From a virus (taxonomy: Duplodnaviria > Caudoviricetes): DNA of 50,183 nucleotides. Position 1 is the stretch's first letter, and every line of letters starts with the position of its first letter. The stretch spans positions 1-50,183 of the IMG/VR virus record IMGVR_UViG_3300009085_000039; one strand, given 5' to 3'. The translations under genes and the position numbers were made by a program. The notes beneath the pieces were generated by a model that had not been told where the DNA came from, did no database searches, and saw only the letters and a program-made list of their open reading frames with translations. Of this stretch, positions 779-30,687 are shown one piece after another.

Positions 779-2995
779 ATGAATATCAAACGAGACAACT
801 TTTCAAAGGTGTTTTCAGCGGTAAGACCTACGGAAGCAGATGCGGGATATACTGTTCCTACGTTATGGATTGATACCGCTGCGGATCAGGCATACATTCT
901 TACGGATGTCACCAGCGGTGTGGCTACATGGAAGAACGTAACCGGAGCTTCGACAACGCTTGATGCACAGAACTCTGTTCTTTCGATAGCGACAGCTTCA
1001 AGTGCACCCCCCACGGAAACAACGGGTAACAGGTATCTTTTAAGTTCTACCGGGACACCTCATGCGAATTGGGACGGGGCGTTAAACAACGACATAGTAG
1101 AGTTTGACGGTGCTTATTGGGTCGCCACGACACCTACAGAGGGCATGATAGTAGAGGTAGAAGACGTAAACACCATTTATCTCTATATTACGTCTTGGAC
1201 TGCATGGCAGAATCAGGCATTAACTACGACATCCTCTCCGACGTTTGTTAATATCACCGCGTCGGGGAATACCCCACTTAATCTTACCGGTACGGCGGTC
1301 ACGAAGGGTGTCAACTTTGCCAACGCAACCGTAGATATGAGCGATGCTGACAATACCATGCTGTCTTACGGGACATGGAATGATGAAGTAGACGTTGGGG
1401 CGCATACAGCGCATTTTGTTCCCTGGCAGGTGCATATGCACTCAACATCCGCTTCTGCCTTTGACATTGCCGCCATGAGGCTCAGGGTTGACACGGACGG
1501 GGACAACACAGGTGCGGCGTTACAGGTGCTTCAGCTTCGGTCCTCTATCATCAACGATACCGCTTCAATAGGTACAATGGGCGCAGGACTAAGTATTGAC
1601 GCAGCGTGTAATGTCGATACGGGGGAAGTGGTGGTTGGTGGCTTCTCGATTGCCGGTGCATACAAACCAACTACTGGCGCACCGAATAAGGTTACTGTTT
1701 TACAGGCTTGTAACTGGAATACTTATGCCGGGACTTCTGTCAACTACCTCATTGATGCGTATCAGAATGGCGCAGGGAATACCGTTGACGCTTTACTTAG
1801 AGGAAATGTCATTGCGGGTACGGCGACGGTCGGTGCGGAAATTGCAAATACTTCTGGAACACTAACAACGGGTTTGAAGTTTACAGGAACGATTGGGACG
1901 GACATAAGCCTCCAAAATGGAGAGACAATCAGCAACACAGTAAATGGGGCAATAGCATTAGGTGGTGCTACGAGTATGAAAGGCCCCGCAGCCGTAACCT
2001 CTTTCGCGGGTACGGTAACAGCAGCGGCCTCTACTTCCGTGACATTCTCAAGCGCGGCGGATGCTATCCTTTGCGGGTATAACGCCACTAACCCTGTCTT
2101 GGGTGCAACGCTGATCTCCAATGCCCTTACAAGATATATCGTAAGCTGGACGAACGCCACGACAGCGGTGGTTGATAGCTCAGTAACATGGGCGGGTACG
2201 GTGATTACGAGTTGCCAGTTGCCGATTGCTACGTTTGTGGATTCGAGCGGAGGAGTTGCTGGATGGATTTCGGCTGGCAGAAATATGGTTATATTTGCTC
2301 CTGGTTATTCCGATACGGCTGGGTTGGCTACTATATTGAAATTTGGGAGGCCGGATAAAGCGGACGGCCAGTTTCAATATCGACTTGATAATACTCGTGG
2401 CGACTTATGTTTAGATGGTTTTAGTGGTGGGAATTGGGTCGAGGTGATTCGGTGGGCGGTCACTGCTCGTAATGTTATTATCGGTGGCGTTGTTCCAGGC
2501 ACCTCCGCAGTTAAGATGCTCTACATGGGTTCTGGAACTGATGCCTCAGATTCCCCCGCAGATGCGGCAGGTATTGTGGTTAAAGACAAAGGTGCGGTTG
2601 CTGGAAAAGCCGCTTTCCATATGCGTGACGAAGCAGGGAACAACGGGCCGGTAGCGTTTGGGAACCTTGTCATCACAAGCCACGGGGCAACTGAATCAGC
2701 TACGGCAGATACGATGTATGGTAATGCTCACCTTGTTACGGGCAATTATGTCGTCAGCCTCCCCACGGCAACAGTCGGGTATAACACAACCTTTATGGCT
2801 ACTACTGCGGCGGCTTTCTCCCTCGATTTACTTACTGGAACGGATGTGTTTTACCTTGATGGGGTCGCGCTTACTGCCGGTTACAAAGTTACGTCTGACG
2901 CATCAATAAGAGCCGAAGTCCAAGTGAGATGCCTTGTTACAGGTTTCTATGAAGTAACAACTGTGAATGGTAGCTTCATCGACGGAGGTGCTTAA
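779..2995 (+). CDS. Tail fibre / receptor-binding protein (DUF2793-like N-terminal region)
   Basis: 738 aa, T/A/G-rich; PPTETTGNRYLL...WDG..NDIVEFDGAYW...PTEG..VEVED pattern typical of DUF2793-like fibre domains; SD AAGGAGG. Confidence 0.7.
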   Translation: MNIKRDNFSKVFSAVRPTEADAGYTVPTLWIDTAADQAYILTDVTSGVATWKNVTGASTTLDAQNSVLSIATASSAPPTETTGNRYLLSSTGTPHANWDGALNNDIVEFDGAYWVATTPTEGMIVEVEDVNTIYLYITSWTAWQNQALTTTSSPTFVNITASGNTPLNLTGTAVTKGVNFANATVDMSDADNTMLSYGTWNDEVDVGAHTAHFVPWQVHMHSTSASAFDIAAMRLRVDTDGDNTGAALQVLQLRSSIINDTASIGTMGAGLSIDAACNVDTGEVVVGGFSIAGAYKPTTGAPNKVTVLQACNWNTYAGTSVNYLIDAYQNGAGNTVDALLRGNVIAGTATVGAEIANTSGTLTTGLKFTGTIGTDISLQNGETISNTVNGAIALGGATSMKGPAAVTSFAGTVTAAASTSVTFSSAADAILCGYNATNPVLGATLISNALTRYIVSWTNATTAVVDSSVTWAGTVITSCQLPIATFVDSSGGVAGWISAGRNMVIFAPGYSDTAGLATILKFGRPDKADGQFQYRLDNTRGDLCLDGFSGGNWVEVIRWAVTARNVIIGGVVPGTSAVKMLYMGSGTDASDSPADAAGIVVKDKGAVAGKAAFHMRDEAGNNGPVAFGNLVITSHGATESATADTMYGNAHLVTGNYVVSLPTATVGYNTTFMATTAAAFSLDLLTGTDVFYLDGVALTAGYKVTSDASIRAEVQVRCLVTGFYEVTTVNGSFIDGGA

Positions 2996-4440
2996 TGAAA
3001 GCCTCTACTAAACGTAAATCAGTCGCCTCCGGTACAGTCACCAGCGGCATGAAGATAAGCGCGACAGATGGTGTTGCCTTCGTTGATTTCACAGCCGCGA
3101 CGTATCTCCCGAACAGCGATTCTACGCCTTTGCCGAACTATCTCGGCCACCTCCTGAGAATCTACGACAGCTCAAACAGGTGGATAGAGGGGTATATCAA
3201 GGCGGCGGGGAGTGCGGAGACGTTTGAAGATGTTATTGGAGGAACAAATCCAGCCTTATTAAACGGTGATTTCGAATCCGCCGAACCTCCTGGAGTCGTG
3301 TGGAGTCGTGGAACTGGATGGGTGATTACTGGTGGGGTGGCTGTCGCGACTGCCGTTGCCGCAAATGTAAGTTTATATCAAAGCCTTACAGGTCTTACCC
3401 CTAATTATCTGTATAAGGCAAGTGCAGATTTTGTTGTTACTACGGGAACAGTGGCGCATAGGTTTGATGCGGTAAATGGGCCAACTATATCTACATCAGG
3501 CACATATTCGCACTACAGAACCATCCAAAACTCAAACATTGACCCTCTGGTTAGGGCATTGACAGAATTTACCGGAACAGTAAATAATTACAGTTGGAGA
3601 AAAGTCCTCACCCCCAGTTCCACCGGCTGCACCATCTCCAACACAAAGGGCGGCTCTGTGATGAACTGGAAGAGCAAGAACGCATCCTTCAACTACAATG
3701 ATTCCAGCTATTCATACCGAATCTACAAGGACAAGGCGGCGGTTGTCGTGGCTACTGACACCATCGCGGCAGGTGCGGCCAAATTAGATACCACCACAGC
3801 AAATGCCTTCTACGGCGGTGCGGTTGATCTCTCAGCCTACCAGACAGGAAAGCATATCCTTGCTCTCTACAACACGACAGGCGGTTACGGGGCTATTGCG
3901 TGGATAAGCGCGGAAGCACCGGCGGGGGAGACACTGGGAGGCGACCTTGTCACTGACCCGTTATTTAATGATGACGGTGCTTGGGCAAAAGAGGAAGCGG
4001 CTTGGACAGTAGATACAACGAATCATTGGGCTGTTGCAACTCTTGTTCGTAATAATTACTGGATAAAAAATACTCTATCTTCGGCTTCAACAGTTGGGAG
4101 TTTATATAAAATCGCCGGAGAATGTCTAACACTTACGAGTTCCACTTGGAATCTTGCCTTTTCTGGATCAACTTCTTTGCCAACTGTTTATTCAAGTACT
4201 GGCGTAAAAACGATATATCTTACCTCCGACCAAATAGGTACAACCGCTGGTTTTTCTGGTAGAAATGACAATACTTCTGGAACATTTGATAATTTCCATG
4301 TGTATAAATTTACCGCCCCCGTCGCCACAGGCGCGCTCCTTCTCTCTACTCGCGGAGGCTCAAGGGGATGGATAAGTAAACACGCATCGTTCGATCCGAA
4401 TTTAGAAATGACCTACAAGATTTACTATGTGGGAGATTGA
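2995..4440 (+). CDS. Tail-associated protein made of two homologous halves, each with a CBM-like insert
   Basis: Internal duplication (HLLRIYD..GSAETF...TKGGS..WKSKNASF..YRIY vs HILALYN..PAGETL...TRGGSRGWISKHASF..YKIY); TAATG coupling to the upstream gene. Confidence 0.6.
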   Translation: MKASTKRKSVASGTVTSGMKISATDGVAFVDFTAATYLPNSDSTPLPNYLGHLLRIYDSSNRWIEGYIKAAGSAETFEDVIGGTNPALLNGDFESAEPPGVVWSRGTGWVITGGVAVATAVAANVSLYQSLTGLTPNYLYKASADFVVTTGTVAHRFDAVNGPTISTSGTYSHYRTIQNSNIDPLVRALTEFTGTVNNYSWRKVLTPSSTGCTISNTKGGSVMNWKSKNASFNYNDSSYSYRIYKDKAAVVVATDTIAAGAAKLDTTTANAFYGGAVDLSAYQTGKHILALYNTTGGYGAIAWISAEAPAGETLGGDLVTDPLFNDDGAWAKEEAAWTVDTTNHWAVATLVRNNYWIKNTLSSASTVGSLYKIAGECLTLTSSTWNLAFSGSTSLPTVYSSTGVKTIYLTSDQIGTTAGFSGRNDNTSGTFDNFHVYKFTAPVATGALLLSTRGGSRGWISKHASFDPNLEMTYKIYYVGD

Positions 4441-24022: not shown

Positions 24023-24513
24023 ATCTTCAAATGGGGGGCCGCAAAGTTATGCCATTACCATTGTCAAGATCACCTATAAGTCAAGCTATCAATACAGCAA
24101 TCCAGAAACTATCAAGAGCTAATACAAGGGGTGATATGGGGGCTGTAGTGAGTGCTCCGCAACATCCAACACCTGTGGTACGCTCATCGTACCAGTTGGA
24201 TAAATGTGCGGATATAAACCATATCCACCTGCCGATGCTTCAGGATGGCGTCTCTATTGGCTCGATATCAAGGGATGCTGTTATGGGGGTATTTATGGGG
24301 GTATGTCAATCAATGGTGGATTATAATGCTTAATGATAATACTATACTATATGTTCTGTGTGATGGATGCAACCTCTGCCATGATTCATATGTGATTCAT
24401 TCGGCAGGGGGGGGAGGGGAGCCGGTGACGAAGGTGGTGGCTGGTGGTATGGATTCCTTACCTGCAACTCACAAGGGTTGGTGGGAAAACGGGTTTATGG
24501 ATAGTGAGTGGTC

Positions 24514-24861
24514 ATGAAATGTTTAGTTTGTGGGGTTGAGTTTGTTGCGGAGCGAAAGACGGCGAAGTATTGTTCTGAGCTTTGCAAGAAGAGGTTTCGG
24601 AGGGGAGTTAGCGGGACAGAAGGTTCCTTAGCGGGACAAGATGACCTTAGCGGGACAGATGAAGTTGGGAGTCCTGCGGAGGTGGTTGATGTGGTCAAGG
24701 ACTTGAAATTGGATTTGCACAAAGACCTTGGGTGCTATTCATGGACGGAGAATGGGATATTTATTCGTTCCGACATAACGATAGATCAGGTTCAGAACAT
24801 AGCTCGATTAGTTGCGGCGAAGCATGGTAGGGAGGTTGATTTTAATGAGTGCCGAGGTTAA
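24514..24861 (+). CDS. Hypothetical zinc-finger protein
   Basis: KCLVCG..F......KYCSELCKK motif. Confidence 0.6.
   Translation: MKCLVCGVEFVAERKTAKYCSELCKKRFRRGVSGTEGSLAGQDDLSGTDEVGSPAEVVDVVKDLKLDLHKDLGCYSWTENGIFIRSDITIDQVQNIARLVAAKHGREVDFNECRG
24608..24657. repeat. Three direct repeats TTAGCGGGACA
   Basis: At 24608, 24628 and 24647 (spacing 20 and 19 bp, not codon multiples). Confidence 0.85.
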
Positions 24862-25396
24862 GAAACCTTTGCCAATGCACAGCCCGGAGGCGATAAAGAA
24901 GCGGGTAGCGACTTTGCATAAGCAGCATAGGGTGAGGGACATGGCGATAGTGAAGAAGCGGATAGAGGGGAAGTCTAACAGGACGATAGCGAAGGAGATT
25001 ACGAGGGAGTTTGCGCCGATAACTCATCAGCGTGTGGATTATATATTGAGTCGAGATGATATAAAGCCTATCATGGAGAAGCAGTATTTGAAGATCATGG
25101 GTGTTGTCCCGGAGGTTACGGACAGGATTATTGCGAAGTCGAGGGCATTAGATGAGAATTTGGATGACAAGATCAACCAGCCGATTTGTTGGGAGGCGAA
25201 CAAACTATTGGCACAGACGGCGGGTATTTTGATTGCGCCGAACCAGACGAATATTCAGAACACGTTTATCACCCAAAATAACAACATAGTCCCTCCGGTG
25301 ATACAGGATCTCATGAAAAAGTATTTCGGGGACATTATTGATATTAAGCCTTTGGACATGAAGGAGATTGAAGATGCCGCTGACGCCCAAGGGTAA
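24845..25396 (+). CDS. terS: Putative terminase small subunit
   Basis: HTH-like EGKSNRTIAKEI...HQRVDYIL, helical middle, TNIQNTFITQNNN tail; upstream of terL; SD GGGAGG. Confidence 0.55.
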   Translation: MSAEVKKPLPMHSPEAIKKRVATLHKQHRVRDMAIVKKRIEGKSNRTIAKEITREFAPITHQRVDYILSRDDIKPIMEKQYLKIMGVVPEVTDRIIAKSRALDENLDDKINQPICWEANKLLAQTAGILIAPNQTNIQNTFITQNNNIVPPVIQDLMKKYFGDIIDIKPLDMKEIEDAADAQG

Positions 25397-25517: not shown

Positions 25518-26105
25518 ATGCGATTCATTCTGAAAGGAACGGCGAGGGATGGGCATGGGCAGATAATTTCAAGTGCCACGGTGAGTGTTTATTTGGCGGG
25601 GACCACGACGGTTGCTTCGGTGTATGCGGCATCTGCCGGTGGGACTGCGGTGAACTCAGTCACTTCTGGAACGGACGGTTCGTTCACGTTATATGTTGAT
25701 GATTCGGATTACTATCAATCTCAGAAGTTCAAGGTGACGGTATCTAAAACCGGATACACGAGTAAGACTTACGATGATGTGGTCATTTTCGCTCTGGGAC
25801 AGGCGACGGTGAAGACTGCTTTGCCTTCGGATGGTGCCGGGGAGAACGGTGATTTTGCCATCGTTGAGACAACGGACAACCATCAGTTCGCGTGGCAAGC
25901 CGGGGATGTATGGTACACCAGCGGCAGGGCGGAGATTCTTGCTGCGGTTCCTTCTGCGGGTACGGGGACTAACGGGGAGATAAGGATCATCGAAGCAACC
26001 GGCCTTCATGCGATAGCATGGAAAGCCGGGGGTGCGTGGTATGTGTCCATAGGAGGCACGACAGAAGGTTCTGCCGGTAATTACTCTTGGGAGTCGAGTC
26101 TGTGA
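25518..26105 (+). CDS. Virion-like protein: prealbumin/head-binding-like domain plus two fibre-type repeats
   Basis: ATVSVYLAGTTTVASVY...SVTSGTDGSFTLY; repeats PSDGAGENGD..AWQAGDVWY and PSAGTGTNGE..AWKAGGAWY. Confidence 0.55.
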   Translation: MRFILKGTARDGHGQIISSATVSVYLAGTTTVASVYAASAGGTAVNSVTSGTDGSFTLYVDDSDYYQSQKFKVTVSKTGYTSKTYDDVVIFALGQATVKTALPSDGAGENGDFAIVETTDNHQFAWQAGDVWYTSGRAEILAAVPSAGTGTNGEIRIIEATGLHAIAWKAGGAWYVSIGGTTEGSAGNYSWESSL

Positions 26106-28636
26106 CCGAGATTGAAGGCATAGCGGGTTGGGAGGGGATGTTTTCGTACAAGCCCACTCAGGTATTGAAGTGGCTTTTAACGAGTCCCTGTAAGATCACC
26201 TGCATATTTTCCGGCAACCAATTTGGAAAAAATGAATGTTTATCAGCACTTACGTTAATAGATACTCCTGAAGGGAAATTCACAATGGAGTATTTATATA
26301 ATAGAAGGATGCCATTTGAAGTTTATTCTTGGGATGGGGACAAAATCGTTAAAGCAAAAGCATCAAAACCTTTTAAGAAAAGTGGTGGTAAACGCTTATG
26401 TTATAAAATTACAATGGCTAATGGTCAGTGGGTAGAGGCATCTTCTGAGCATCGTGTTTTAACAACTTCTGGTGATTATATTTCTGTCGGCACCTTATAC
26501 GATTTTTTTCGCGGTTCTCCTCAGGAGAAAGTTTACGAGAAATATTATAAGATTGCTGACGAACCCTCCCATCGGGAGTCCATTTTGGGATTTTTCCCTT
26601 CAATTCAGTTCGAAGATGTTCTGCATTACTTGAAAAGAGTATTAGGTTTTCTAGGTTGTTGTTTTCACGATTTCCATCTAAATGGTGGACAACCTCTTGG
26701 GGGAGGAGGTAGCGAGACAGTTTTCTTTCGATTATTAAACGATGTTCGGCAACATATTTACCGCCATGTACTGCAAAAGGATGTTCTGGATAGTAAATAT
26801 GCCAGTATCCAGAAATTAGTATGCGGCCTCCTTTCCATCCTGTGTGTTTATCACCGGAACGTGGTCCGGTTCTTTGAGTCTTTATTGCCAGTTTTTTGCA
26901 TAGGTACTCTATCGTATACAGGGGTACATCAAAATATTCAGCGACTTCCCATTGTCTCAAACCTTCTTTCTCAATCATATAGATTAGTTTCTGATGATCG
27001 ACTTTTCCCGAAGATTTCATACGCTCCTCCTTTAATATTTGATGGTAATAAAGTTATTAGCATCGAAATGGTTGCAAGTCAAGAAGTATATGATATGACC
27101 GTTGAAAAATATCACAACTATCTTGCGGGTGGTTTAATTCACCATAATTCAGTTGCGATGGATCAAATCTTCTCTATCTTGGGAACGCACCCTAACGTGA
27201 ACAAACGTGTAAGGCCCGAAGACACCATCAGGACGTTCAGGTTTGCCTCTCAGACCCTCCCCGGGGAGAAGGAAGAGGATGAAGTCAAGAACACCCAATA
27301 CCCCGCGTTCAAACGAAGGCTACCGGCTAATCTTATCGAGAAAGAGATCACGCAGAGAAAACCAACCTTAACGGTGAAGACTCCTGATGGCGGGAACGTA
27401 CAGATAGAATTTGTGAGTTTCCAACAGGATGTTCAATCCGGTGCCGGTGTCCAGAGGAAGCGGATATGGATAGATGAGGAATGTACAAGGGATTTCTACG
27501 AAGAGCAGATCCCGAGGCTTCTTGCGGCGGATGGGGATATTGTGTTCACCTTTACTCCTGTCCCCGGCGCGATAGGTTGGGAGTTTGACGAACTCTACGA
27601 ACGGGCGAAGATCATCTACCGGACCCCTGCGGTACGACAGCGGATTAAAGAACGCTACGGAGAGGACTACCCCGAATGTCAGATAACCAAAAGCAAAGAT
27701 GACATCTGCGTTATCATGGCGGCTACGGATGACAACCCTGTTTACGAAGAGGTGGCACGGAAGCGAAGCCTTCATACCGGGATAAAGATCACGGCGAAAG
27801 AATACATCGATTCCATGTTCAATATGTATGACGATGAGGACGTTATCGATGCTCGAAGATATGGGTTGTTCAGACAGCTTTCCGGCAAGATCCACAAGTC
27901 GTTTTGCGCGACACATATATTAAAGGAAGAGGTTTACTTCCCCGAAGGCATTCCAACCGAGTGGAAACACTATCGTGGGATCGACTATCATCAGTCTAAC
28001 CCTTGGGCGTGTGTATGGCTCTCTTTAAGCCCTCAGGACGAGATATTTGTATGGGACGACTACGCCCCCTCCCCCCAAAGGATGATAACCTACGACATAG
28101 CAGAGAACATCGCCCGAAGGAGCCATGACTTCAGATATGTGTTTAACATGATTGACCCGAACGCTTCCAATAGGCAGCCGAATACGAATTTAACCACCAT
28201 AGACGACCTGAATAGAGCCTTTATGGACTTCCGAACCAGGGGACTATGTAATGGGGGTCACTGGCAAGCATGGGATACCCACGGTGGTCGCGGCAGGGAA
28301 GAACTGACTAAAAGACTGATAAATTCCGTAAAAGTGGGCAAGCCGTTCAATAATAAGGTAGTTTCAGAGGGTCGTGCGGTATATCTCCCGACAATTTGGT
28401 TCACCCAGAACTGTAAAAACACGATTGAAAGTCTGAAAAATTGGCGTTTGGAACAGTGGTCTTCACGGGAATCTCTTTCAAAAAACGATCCAAGGGAAAA
28501 GACGCAGATGAGGTGGTCGCATTTTCCTATTTGTATAGAATGTATGCTCAAGTCGCCCCTTCTGTCCCTTGCCAAATGGGGGAATCTGGATGGGACACCG
28601 TTGAGGCCGAAACTTTATGCTTCAGGAAGGAATTAA
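26102..28636 (+). CDS. terL: Terminase large subunit, intein-containing
   Basis: Walker A SGNQFGK, Walker B RIWIDEE, motif III TFTP, nuclease YRGIDYH; upstream of the portal; GTGA overlap start. Confidence 0.92.
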   Translation: MTEIEGIAGWEGMFSYKPTQVLKWLLTSPCKITCIFSGNQFGKNECLSALTLIDTPEGKFTMEYLYNRRMPFEVYSWDGDKIVKAKASKPFKKSGGKRLCYKITMANGQWVEASSEHRVLTTSGDYISVGTLYDFFRGSPQEKVYEKYYKIADEPSHRESILGFFPSIQFEDVLHYLKRVLGFLGCCFHDFHLNGGQPLGGGGSETVFFRLLNDVRQHIYRHVLQKDVLDSKYASIQKLVCGLLSILCVYHRNVVRFFESLLPVFCIGTLSYTGVHQNIQRLPIVSNLLSQSYRLVSDDRLFPKISYAPPLIFDGNKVISIEMVASQEVYDMTVEKYHNYLAGGLIHHNSVAMDQIFSILGTHPNVNKRVRPEDTIRTFRFASQTLPGEKEEDEVKNTQYPAFKRRLPANLIEKEITQRKPTLTVKTPDGGNVQIEFVSFQQDVQSGAGVQRKRIWIDEECTRDFYEEQIPRLLAADGDIVFTFTPVPGAIGWEFDELYERAKIIYRTPAVRQRIKERYGEDYPECQITKSKDDICVIMAATDDNPVYEEVARKRSLHTGIKITAKEYIDSMFNMYDDEDVIDARRYGLFRQLSGKIHKSFCATHILKEEVYFPEGIPTEWKHYRGIDYHQSNPWACVWLSLSPQDEIFVWDDYAPSPQRMITYDIAENIARRSHDFRYVFNMIDPNASNRQPNTNLTTIDDLNRAFMDFRTRGLCNGGHWQAWDTHGGRGREELTKRLINSVKVGKPFNNKVVSEGRAVYLPTIWFTQNCKNTIESLKNWRLEQWSSRESLSKNDPREKTQMRWSHFPICIECMLKSPLLSLAKWGNLDGTPLRPKLYASGRN
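26418..27020 (-). CDS. HNH homing endonuclease encoded antisense inside the intein
   Basis: N-terminal HTH-like segment, HTGWKGGR, YVAEHRLIIERKLSRYL..EVVHHLDGNRENNNLENL..H; SD AAAGGAGGAG just upstream of the ATG. Confidence 0.92.
   Translation of the reverse strand: MKSSGKVDHQKLIYMIEKEGLRQWEVAEYFDVPLYTIEYLCKKLAIKTQRTGPRSGDKHTGWKGGRILISGYWHIYYPEHPFAVHGGKYVAEHRLIIERKLSRYLLPQEVVHHLDGNRENNNLENLILFSSNAEHLRTELKGKIPKWTPDGRVRQQSYNISRKLSPEENREKNRIRCRQKYNHQKLLKHDAQKMPLPTDH
27054..27082 (-). promoter_or_regulatory. Candidate internal promoter for the antisense HNH gene
   Basis: TTGACT-N17-TAATAA with TGn extension, about 30 nt upstream of the ATG. Confidence 0.4.
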
Positions 28637-28639
28637 AAC

Positions 28640-28786
28640 ATGCTTTATGCGTTCCATTGTAAGGAATGTAAGAAGGTTTACGAGGTGATTCTACCCTTGA
28701 AACAGTACGATAAGAAGGTGAAATGCCCGTATTGCAAGAAAAGATTGAATAAAATCATCACTCCGGTCTTATTTAAGGTGAAATGA
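28640..28786 (+). CDS. FmdB-like zinc-ribbon protein (48 aa, not in ORF track)
   Basis: MLYAFHCKECKKVYEV...KCPYCKK.LNKIIT; TGATG coupling to the portal gene. Confidence 0.75.
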   Translation: MLYAFHCKECKKVYEVILPLKQYDKKVKCPYCKKRLNKIITPVLFKVK

Positions 28787-30687
28787 TGGCAAAAAGACGG
28801 CTTAAAGAGGCAGATTTGGTGTTGGCGAACAACATTTACGACCAATACGACATTGCCAAAAGGGATCAACAGGATTCGGATGAAGAATTTGCCGGGATAA
28901 TGGACATGATTGAGTGCAAACGGTCTGAAAAGGACTATGAGTGGATGTCCGATGTCTTCATCCCGGAGTTTCCATCTATTCACTTGACTGAAGCATCCCA
29001 ATGGGCAAACCAGTATTTCCAGAGTCGTGATTTCGTTGAGGTGTACCTAAGCGATGCCTCCGAAATTGGTGAATTTAGGGCAAAAGCCGCCAAAGATTAC
29101 ATCAACACCATGCTCAATGTGAAGGAACTCTATCACTACCCTAAGTACATAAGGGCAAGGGGGATAAATTCAATCCGTGGACAGGTTGTTGCGGTATGCA
29201 GTTGGAAACAGAGGCTTATAGAGAAGAACGAGCCTTCGGAAGAGATGGCATTAACAGGGTACGATGCCAATTCCGCCCCGGTTTACGACATGGTACAGAA
29301 GCAGAACACGGTTTCTCATCCGGTTGAGGACAGGTTTGAGTATGAGGTAATCGACCCGAGGAACCTGTTTTCGGATAACAAATACGCCTATTCGATACAG
29401 GAAAAGGAATGGGTTATCATTAGGAGTGAGATGACCTATGACGAACTGTATTCCAAGCGATTGGAAAACGGGTACATCAATCTCGACAAGGTGAAAAAGT
29501 GGAAAACGGTTTATAAAACTGATACCGCAAAGGACACCGAGAATGAAGAGAACGAAAGCAAACTTACCGAGCCGCATTTTGATGTTCTTGAACGATTCGG
29601 GAAGACTTGGGCGGTTGTTGAAGACCGTGACGAATATGGAAACCCGAGAACGATTCATAACGGGTACAAAGAGGACGGGTCTGTAAAGGAATCTGCGGAA
29701 CTTGTCGAGGCGATTGTCACGGTGGCTTGCTACAATAGCGATAGAGTCCTGATAAGGCTTCAGGCAACACCGTTTATCACCTCCAAGGGTATTCCCTATA
29801 GACCCCTTATAAGAGGGTTATGCTACGTCCATCCGACCAAGGATGTCGGCATGAGCGACGGTAAGTACGGCAGGGAACTTCAAATTTTAATAAACGACAT
29901 GATAAACATGGGTATCGACAGGTCTAAACTCTCCATGCTGCCTACTTTGAAGGTCCGGAGACTTGCTTGGGAAGACAACGATTCCATCTATTTTGAGCCG
30001 GAACACGCTATGATAGTCGAGAACAAGGACGACATCGAGGAGTTCAGGATCGATGGGAATATTCAATCTTCAATGGACATCATCTCATTGGCGATAAATA
30101 AGATGCAACAGGTCGAAGCGGTGTACCCCACGACAATGGGAAACACGCCAGGGAAAGTGGAAACCGCAACGGCAATCTCCGGCGCGGAGAACCGGGGGAA
30201 CTTGAGGGCAAACTACAAATCCCTTACCTTTGAACATACTTTTCTTTCGGAGTTTTACTGGATGATGCTTCAAATGGGCTACCAGTTCATGCACCCCGAA
30301 ACCGCCACCGAGATCATGGGTGACAATGCACAATATTTCGATCCCGACCAGAACTACAGCTATACCCCTGTGACGAGCAATATCGAGGTGGAATACTCAA
30401 AGGCGAAGAAACTGCAAGCCTTCGACTCTATGTTGAGCCGTTTGGTTGGGCTTCAGAACCCCGCCATCGTCCCGATCATTGCGGCGATTGTGTCACGGCA
30501 ATTCGAACTCCTGGGTGATGAGTACCAGAAATACTCTAAACTTGTTGAAGTGTTGGCTAAGACACCCAATACCCCTGAAGCCGGAGGAGGGAATAAAAAT
30601 CAACCCAACGGTAAAGAAGCAATGCCTCCTCAGAATCAGGAAGGATTGCCCATGAGTGGCATGGAACAAGAGGTTAGAGGAATATGA
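28786..30687 (+). CDS. Portal protein
   Basis: About 630 aa after terL; VIDPRNLF, WVIIRSEMT, ETATAIS motifs typical of podophage portals. Confidence 0.85.
   Translation: MAKRRLKEADLVLANNIYDQYDIAKRDQQDSDEEFAGIMDMIECKRSEKDYEWMSDVFIPEFPSIHLTEASQWANQYFQSRDFVEVYLSDASEIGEFRAKAAKDYINTMLNVKELYHYPKYIRARGINSIRGQVVAVCSWKQRLIEKNEPSEEMALTGYDANSAPVYDMVQKQNTVSHPVEDRFEYEVIDPRNLFSDNKYAYSIQEKEWVIIRSEMTYDELYSKRLENGYINLDKVKKWKTVYKTDTAKDTENEENESKLTEPHFDVLERFGKTWAVVEDRDEYGNPRTIHNGYKEDGSVKESAELVEAIVTVACYNSDRVLIRLQATPFITSKGIPYRPLIRGLCYVHPTKDVGMSDGKYGRELQILINDMINMGIDRSKLSMLPTLKVRRLAWEDNDSIYFEPEHAMIVENKDDIEEFRIDGNIQSSMDIISLAINKMQQVEAVYPTTMGNTPGKVETATAISGAENRGNLRANYKSLTFEHTFLSEFYWMMLQMGYQFMHPETATEIMGDNAQYFDPDQNYSYTPVTSNIEVEYSKAKKLQAFDSMLSRLVGLQNPAIVPIIAAIVSRQFELLGDEYQKYSKLVEVLAKTPNTPEAGGGNKNQPNGKEAMPPQNQEGLPMSGMEQEVRGI

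Follow-up and report, generated by a model that had tools for sequence, protein, structure and literature searches.

We analysed a 50,183-bp IMG/VR virus record of the Caudoviricetes (IMGVR_UViG_3300009085_000039, completeness rated 99%; the window, by which we mean this whole stretch of DNA) and found that its terminase gene (TerL) is interrupted at the P-loop by a class-1 intein, inside which an endonuclease with a helix-turn-helix (HTH) and an HNH_3 domain is encoded on the opposite strand. The intein frame is open across the nuclease gene and is kept open by selection. By sequence comparison, this element is one member of a large conserved family and no single event in this phage. It is probably a composite homing element, made up of an intein that rescues the host protein and an antisense nuclease that is expressed separately and drives mobility. 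Inteins with antisense endonucleases are already known, and the HNH form is a new, widespread variant.

Terminase intein and antisense nuclease

The intein is inserted two residues past the Walker A Lys, with Ser at position +1 (...FGKNE|CLSALT...GLIHHN|SVAMD). An earlier note on this DNA had described complete splicing motifs at this site (Cys1, block B His and HN-Ser+1), and both the boundaries and the match to the Pfam family Intein_splicing across the intein (E 1.2e-11, 45.1 bits against a cut-off of 35.8) agree with that description. No variation was seen among 65 inteins at C1, H72, D286 and N304, and H303 is conserved in at least 90%. We built AlphaFold2 models on 65-sequence alignments. 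Using Foldseek, the intein model had 32 matches in PDB at E <= 0.001, every one of them an intein or a Hint domain, and in the comparison with the mini-intein NpuDnaE (4kl5; E 9.4e-7, TM-score to target 0.81) the stretch between the two splicing lobes, hereafter the filler, is a gap. The assignment to class 1 is based on the splicing residues, on Hint sequence and fold, and on the in-frame insertion at a conserved site that is empty in alleles elsewhere.

A single TerL-like region was detected in this genome, together with a single intein and a single HNH_3 gene, which makes the phage dependent on the intein-bearing TerL precursor. The intact splicing residues and the lone TerL gene in a 99%-complete genome suggest that the intein splices. 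TerL may start at the TTG at 26087 or at an in-frame ATG 17 codons downstream. The protein matches annotated terminases (tblastn E 3e-13 to 3e-6), and its family profile aligns with exteins positive for Terminase_6 (hhalign probability 99.3%, E 5e-20). No terminase family of Pfam or PHROGs matched the C-extein of the window, and the TerL family profile had no match in PDB.

The GC content is 34-43% across the element against ~50% in the flanks. The junction between N-extein and intein is spanned without differences by contigs from two other runs, both of one further study (X3, positions 26067-26320; X4, positions 26085-26287), and the C-terminal intein junction is spanned in X1 only, which may be the source sample. 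In the parts covered by contigs of the four DNA runs (partial for X2-X4), we found no joint that skips the intein and no variants. A look for RNA runs that contain this stretch gave none.

The antisense gene encodes an HTH (~residues 1-50), a nuclease core (~residues 56-143) and a helical tail (residues 149-191). It matches HNH_3 in Pfam (E 1.8e-8, 34.3 bits against a cut-off of 24.8) and HNH endonuclease families in PHROGs (best phrog_10730, 2.6e-22), and the motif residues H113, N121, N125, N132 and H135 are invariant in 65 relatives. The AlphaFold2 model has a mean predicted local distance difference test score (pLDDT) of 90.4, and its N-terminal HTH reaches Z 7.0. These results bear out the intact 200-aa HTH and HNH gene proposed in the earlier note, and hidden Markov model (HMM) scans of both frames place Intein_splicing on the plus strand and HNH_3 on the minus strand, each above its Pfam cut-off.

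The solved nuclease nearest to the HNH core is I-HmuI (PDB 1u3e; VIA Z 6.4, root-mean-square deviation 3.6, 79 residues, 24% identity). Both are of the Pfam family type HNH_3; they differ in domain order, the enzyme of the window having an N-terminal HTH and a C-terminal helical tail, and the similarity is weak (profile HMM E 0.0037, Foldseek E 0.23). In the Foldseek comparison of the HNH model with PDB, nothing was found at E <= 0.001. I-HmuI itself is the product of a group I intron and has nickase activity.

The HNH start codon is preceded by a Shine-Dalgarno-like sequence, AAAGGAGGAG, which on the plus strand provides Ala-Pro-Pro codons of the intein. A terminator-like hairpin followed by a T-run lies on the terminase strand inside the filler (26566-26578); it is probably due to chance, because one site was found against 1.3 expected from shuffled sequences. 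The coordinates of these features are collected in Table 1.

Table 1. Features of the intein-bearing terminase gene and of the antisense HNH gene in the window
Feature	Position	Strand	Remarks
TerL precursor open reading frame (ORF)	26087..28636	+	849 aa including the intein, stop-free; from the ORF table
N-extein	26087..26236	+	ends in the Walker A-like loop SGNQFGKNE
Class-1 intein, 304 aa	26237..27148	+	Cys1 26237-26239; block B His72 26450-26452; Asp286; His303-Asn304 27143-27148
Intein N-terminal splicing lobe, residues 1-90	26237..26506	+	AlphaFold2 pLDDT 95-98
Sense-frame filler, ~residues 91-261	26507..27019	+	usual endonuclease slot; no family match; stop-free
Intein C-terminal splicing lobe, residues 262-304	27020..27148	+	AlphaFold2 pLDDT 80-97; Pfam profile positions 121-155
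C-extein	27149..28636	+	first residue Ser+1 (27149-27151); 53-86% identity to 17 IMG/VR loci
HTH-HNH_3 endonuclease gene, 200 aa + stop	26418..27020	-	Pfam, PHROGs; nested in the intein
Shine-Dalgarno-like AAAGGAGGAG	27024..27033	-	3 nt 5' of the HNH ATG; strong
Sigma-70-like promoter match TTGTGA-16-TATCAT, weak	27090..27117	-	~70 nt 5' of the HNH start

Because the HNH gene has its stop codon at 26418-26420, upstream of block B (codons at 26447-26464), its last codons overlap block B, as the earlier note had pointed out. Within 26418-27020 the intein frame has no stop codon and the HNH frame only its own, against 10-15 in each of the four remaining frames. Shuffling of synonymous codons, with the HNH protein and its codon usage held fixed, kept the intein frame free of stops in 1 of 5000 and in 0 of 3000 trials (mean 6.1 stops), so the chance of about 2e-4 that had been put on such an open frame was about right. 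The same permutation in ten other loci left the frame open in 0-9 of 3000 trials. All 89 in-intein HNH genes have an intein frame without stops (89/89), the other two antisense frames having means of 11.0 and 7.7. As a natural control we used 57 HNH relatives without a detected intein, in which the equivalent frame has a mean of 6.9 stops and is open in three. The open intein frame across the HNH gene is selected. A chance shadow ORF is rejected by the permutations, by the intein-free HNH controls and by the codon-position pattern described below.

The three open controls (L152, L153 and L185) are unmatched by the intein HMMs, and the strand opposite each of them has a stop-free frame of 745-777 aa in the usual frame relation. 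Weak Hint_2 matches were obtained in the two of them that were scanned (L153, E 3e-4; L185, E 7.5e-4), and these matches and the open frames suggest that the three are probably diverged members of the design.

Stops in the filler frame are nearly always avoidable by synonymous choice, because only certain dinucleotide-plus-A contexts across HNH codon boundaries make them; this argument was derived from the genetic code and the measured frame. The offset between the strands places HNH codon position 3 on filler position 2, and HNH position 2 on filler position 3. In every diverged locus pair, nucleotide identity is highest at HNH position 2, followed by position 1 and then position 3 (0.58, 0.69 and 0.38 at positions 1, 2 and 3 between the window and L002), and the second codon positions of the filler, being HNH third positions, are the least conserved. 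This order points to purifying selection that acts on the HNH protein and leaves the filler sequence free. Between pairs of loci, identity averages 0.41 in the HNH, 0.33 in the splicing lobes, 0.25 in the filler and 0.24 in the exteins.

In the AlphaFold2 model, the filler has pLDDT <50 at residues 116-197 and 230-257 and a single helix at 199-230 (pLDDT 62-83). A real folded domain in the sense frame is thus rejected, there being no Pfam match and low model confidence except in this one helix. The same holds for a canonical in-frame endonuclease domain, given that no family matched, pLDDT was mostly below 50 and selection acts on the other strand. The stretch in the endonuclease slot is the shadow-like filler that had been supposed from its composition. 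The converse arrangement, a folded plus-frame domain opposite an HNH gene that is decayed in homologs, was not what we found, as the insert has no Pfam match and the HNH motif is invariant in 65 relatives.

Distribution, empty alleles and decay

When viral contigs were searched with the single HNH sequence, all eight clear relatives (8/8) lay antisense inside an intein-bearing terminase ORF. A profile of 6 HNH sequences detected at least 495 relatives in IMG/VR, and among the best 80 of these, 77 have N- and C-lobe HMM matches with the HNH stretch in one open antisense frame; the remaining three have one lobe each, and at least one of them (L041) ends at the contig end. Contigs from one genome per species gave, among the best 80 HNH matches, 12 with the full design, 2 with part of it and 66 short matches to the HNH core. 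Starting from the intein N-lobe, we found 41 loci. In 37 of them a single frame takes in both the antisense HNH and the C-lobe, one is cut by a contig end and three are without HNH.

In 85 of the 89 complete loci the insertion boundaries could be placed, without exception at the Walker A loop. Three registers occur: GK|T, before [ST]GK[ST], and GKxE|[ST], the last being that of the window. The two strands have one and the same frame relation in 84/84 loci, and the HNH ORF measures 165-251 aa across the complete loci. In total, over 100 independent contigs and two lineages of cultured phages show the design. Such a large family with one common frame relation indicates that the nuclease invasion long predates the acquisition by this phage. 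The earlier note had proposed a dual-coding element in which a free-standing HNH gene invaded a mini-intein in reverse orientation; the core of this proposal fits all the comparative evidence, which shows a large family in place of a singular event in this phage. Two more distant relatives of the HTH-HNH type, gp148 of Mycobacterium phage Thibault and an HNH encoded in MW202481, are free-standing genes.

Eighteen C-exteins were scanned for family matches. Ten match Terminase_6 or Terminase_3, one matches TraG-D_C, two have weak helicase matches and five, including that of the window, have none. The TraG-D_C match (L122:798-2156, minus strand; E 8.4e-6, above the cut-off) is accompanied by one to TrwB_AAD_bind, and the weak helicase matches are to DEAD/SNF2 families (L111:1353-2393 and L124:1212-2393, both minus strand). 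The element may thus occupy the P-loops of other ATPases too. One locus (L097:3-2036, minus strand) has a second intein downstream in the terminase C-extein (Hint_2 at residues 98-140, Intein_splicing at residues 344-371). The design was also seen on genome contigs binned as metagenome-assembled genomes (MAGs) of Clostridia, Pirellulales, Chloroflexi, Paracoccaceae (on a 225-kb contig), Nanoarchaeota and Methanobacteriota (L114-L126 and L143); these bin labels do not establish host range, because the contigs are mostly short and may be mis-binned phage.

The distribution of the element is patchy. A search with the C-extein gave 17 IMG/VR loci of 53-86% identity, two of them lacking the N-terminal flank; all 15 loci with both flanks are intein-free, with contiguous exteins, and so provide the exact intein-free terL alleles that the earlier note had looked to (15/15). 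Overall we count sixteen related terminase alleles that precisely lack the intein. Twelve empty junctions read GNQxGKxE|[T/C/E]..MD. The maximum-likelihood TerL tree has an empty allele as the sister of the window (86% identical, support 100/100). L038, which alone among the other alleles of this TerL family bears an intein, is nested elsewhere in the tree, and the two intein-bearing alleles require at least two changes on well-supported branches. Eleven of the window's 12 closest HNH relatives are in terminases at the baseline extein identity of 0.18-0.25, the twelfth being L038 (0.51), in the window's own TerL family. The element is therefore mobile between lineages of terminases, since 11 of these 12 relatives sit in unlike terminases.

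Full elements measure 280-340 aa, and the set found from the intein N-lobe includes several shorter ones. Two have a truncated HNH (L218 with 222 aa, whose sibling L219 has 304 aa, and L215 with 194 aa), and one of 141 aa retains only a remnant of the HNH tail (L224). The surviving HNH remnant is the segment that overlaps the intein N-lobe. Three are without HNH: the mini-inteins L197 and L200 (133 aa each) and L231 (271 aa, no HNH match). From their sequences, the shortened elements look like a decay series that leads from the full element to a mini-intein, as would be expected once a homing element has become fixed.

Two lineages of cultured phages encode the design. In Pectobacterium phage Ymer (OP748252.2, L032), one of 8 matched Pectobacterium/Dickeya phage records in GenBank, the intein-bearing terminase is at 1119-3383 (minus strand) and the antisense HNH at 2462-3187 (plus strand). 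The long ORF is annotated as 'hypothetical protein' and the HNH is uncalled; the paper describing the Ymer genus mentions neither intein nor HNH. In Pseudoalteromonas phage PHS3 (KX912252.1, L033), with a terminase frame at 1056-3179 (minus strand) and the HNH at 2321-3031 (plus strand), the HNH is called and the annotated terminase is truncated, starting inside the intein C-lobe; a frame of 708 aa crosses the HNH.

Homing model and alternatives

In the composite homing element that we consider probable, the TerL P-loop is interrupted by the class-1 intein and the whole precursor would be translated, including ~170 filler residues. The two splicing lobes would fold together in the manner of a mini-intein, excise the insert and restore the terminase. 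The HNH would be made from its own antisense transcript by way of its own ribosome-binding site. In a mixed infection it would nick or cut a terminase allele without intein at the intact P-loop site, and repair from the intein-bearing genome would copy intein and HNH together. The intein would shield its carrier by disrupting the target site while the essential gene stays functional. Selection on the terminase would keep the filler stop-free through synonymous choice of HNH codons, and selection for mobility would keep the HNH protein intact. Splicing of the precursor, independent expression of the HNH from the antisense strand and its cutting of the empty allele at the predicted P-loop target are the steps that we infer.

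Several results weigh against this reading or narrow it. The best 80 IMG/VR loci were picked by HNH similarity, which biases them towards intact HNH genes, and the sample gathered from the intein side is smaller and comes from one narrow search pattern. The modelled fold gives modest support for an I-HmuI-like nuclease. Among 74 non-identical loci, only 37 have a Shine-Dalgarno-like motif ahead of their first ATG. The number of promoter-like sites here is at chance level (3 against 3.3 expected from shuffles), and since shuffles give as many sites, the promoter match listed in Table 1 is no evidence by itself. Finally, HNH and splicing-lobe pairwise identities are only moderately correlated (Spearman 0.44), so that some reassortment between HNH and intein is possible.

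This last value would also suit an independent selfish HNH gene that uses the intein slot as a safe harbour and has another target, or mobilises itself, with no part in intein homing; the existence of free-standing relatives points the same way. We consider this unlikely, as the pairing is near-obligate (77 of the best 80 among at least 495 relatives, and 37 of 41 loci, with one frame in 84/84), at the P-loop site the unit is either there in full or precisely missing, loss of the HNH accompanies shrinkage to mini-inteins and, among the long matches, the HNH clade was not found outside Hint-containing frames. The antisense gene could have been domesticated instead, either as a packaging-associated HNH or as the source of an antisense transcript that regulates the terminase, with no homing role. 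It does sit in the packaging module, and HNH proteins adjoining terminase genes are known packaging factors according to the part of PMC3592412 on which we draw. Set against this, the HNH seems not to be needed for packaging in this lineage, because the closest terminase relatives are without intein and HNH (15 of the 17 closest TerL loci, those with both flanks; 53-86% identity), the nuclease is of the HNH_3 or I-HmuI type with an HTH, and its low GC content marks the element as foreign. We accordingly rate domestication improbable.

A functional fracture, in which the filler is not translated and the intein halves are made separately and spliced in trans, would resemble the phage genes fractured by split inteins with a free-standing nuclease gene between the halves (Dassa 2009, PMC2677866; here and below, published systems are compared on the available portions of each source). 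Those loci share with the window a nuclease of free-standing type in the endonuclease slot, a coding overlap at one end and a model in which the nuclease invades the intein. They differ in that the nuclease gene, GIY-YIG or Vsr-like, splits the host gene into two ORFs that require trans-splicing, whereas here the nuclease is antisense and the ORF single and continuous. The filler frame is stop-free in 89/89 loci against ~6-7 stops expected, which would be pointless without read-through, and we regard a fracture as very improbable; a split or fractured gene is rejected, the frame being continuous in the window and in 89/89 loci. An artefact (a shadow ORF that is open by chance, an error of assembly or a terminase gene that is a dead pseudogene) is scarcely credible. 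The C-terminal junction is spanned only in the possible source run, which would allow for it; family matches are present on both strands, the permutations and natural controls exclude a chance frame, more than 100 independent contigs and two cultured-phage lineages carry the design, independent contigs span the N-terminal junction and the catalytic residues are intact.

The composite homing element has close counterparts in the literature. Antisense LAGLIDADG endonucleases were described in the DnaX intein of Synechocystis and the SpoVR intein of Chloroflexus (Gorbalenya 1998; Gogarten 2002), and in actinobacteriophage inteins, those of terminases included, antisense LAGLIDADG, antisense VSR-like and out-of-frame EndoVII-like nucleases have been reported (Gosselin, Arsenault, Gogarten; bioRxiv 10.1101/2025.01.02.630785). 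The available text of that preprint argues for invasion by free-standing nucleases and predicts that such elements are under-counted. The suggestion of the earlier note that the architecture is not among the described classes of intein thus goes too far, since antisense LAGLIDADG and VSR-like forms had been reported; only the antisense HNH is absent from the available text, where HNH is listed solely as an in-frame domain and whose supplements may list further types. We found no report of an antisense HNH inside an intein in the literature, our coverage of subscription journals and supplements being incomplete.

As far as the preprint describes them, the actinophage inteins resemble the element of the window in the opposite-strand nuclease between the splicing blocks, the open intein frame and the foldless in-frame stretch, as well as in the use of TerL as a host, the patchy distribution and the proposed origin by invasion of a free nuclease. 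Unlike the LAGLIDADG and VSR-like types reported there, the nuclease here is an I-HmuI-like HTH and HNH_3 protein; its hosts are metagenomic, Pectobacterium and Pseudoalteromonas phages and MAG contigs, and its family is large (at least 495 HNH relatives). The P-loop terminase inteins TerL1-a/b of mycobacteriophages (Kelley 2016, PMC5050341) share the insertion at Walker A, including the 'GK|T' register between the invariant Lys and the nucleophilic Thr that we found in L034, L036 and others; a nuclease gene that is antisense, on the opposite strand or in reverse orientation goes unmentioned in the available part of that paper. Collaborative homing of introns is similar in having two separately expressed partners, a splicing element that neutralises the insertion and destroys the target, and a nuclease pre-adapted to the site; it differs in that an RNA-splicing intron is paired with an adjacent nuclease gene, in place of an intein with a nested antisense nuclease. 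A possibly related case, in which an HNH gene is nested inside another ORF, appears in the available part of PMC12613952.

A wider history can be put forward only tentatively. A P-loop mini-intein might once, long ago, have captured a free-standing HTH-HNH gene in reverse orientation, and the resulting cassette might have spread through unrelated terminases (Terminase_3, Terminase_6 and the unclassified type of the window), probably also other P-loop ATPases, carried by phages whose hosts range over many lineages of bacteria and perhaps of archaea. The cassette may then be the most abundant class of non-canonical inteins, with an adaptive antisense layout, and it would have been overlooked because gene callers report one strand only. 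If this history is true, the antisense layout would uncouple the time and amount of nuclease production from the late expression of the terminase, and the essential host gene, by enforcing the open frame, would shape the codon choice of the nuclease.

The more than 100 independent loci, cultured phages included, form a natural data set on how inteins gained homing nucleases. They support a model in which the splicing element came first and the nuclease invaded later, and they show a stable intermediate that still has the two functions in separate genes. Long antisense dual coding, too, has a clean natural example here, from which the direction of selection is directly legible: one strand encodes a protein under purifying selection and the other needs only the absence of stops. 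The PHS3 terminase and the HNH and terminase genes of the Ymer group expose a systematic mis-annotation, and surveys in which these elements are classed as mini-inteins or as inteins in decay will count too few active homing elements. The HTH-HNH enzymes are compact and presumably directed at P-loop codons, and may serve as new site-specific nickases.

Neighbouring genes

Three neighbouring ORFs on the plus strand (24812-25396, 25518-26105 and 28783-30687) had no PHROG match at E <= 0.001, terminase and portal families included. The last of these, of 634 aa, is at the position expected for the portal gene. Judged by these searches, the phage lineage of the window is poorly represented in current family libraries. 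Upstream of the packaging genes, a 117-aa ORF (24508-24861, plus strand) begins with a CxxC…CxxC segment and weakly matches phrog_6975 (3.7e-9) and part of the 'HNH endonuclease' family phrog_1271 (1.5e-5); its product is possibly a zinc-ribbon DNA-binding protein.

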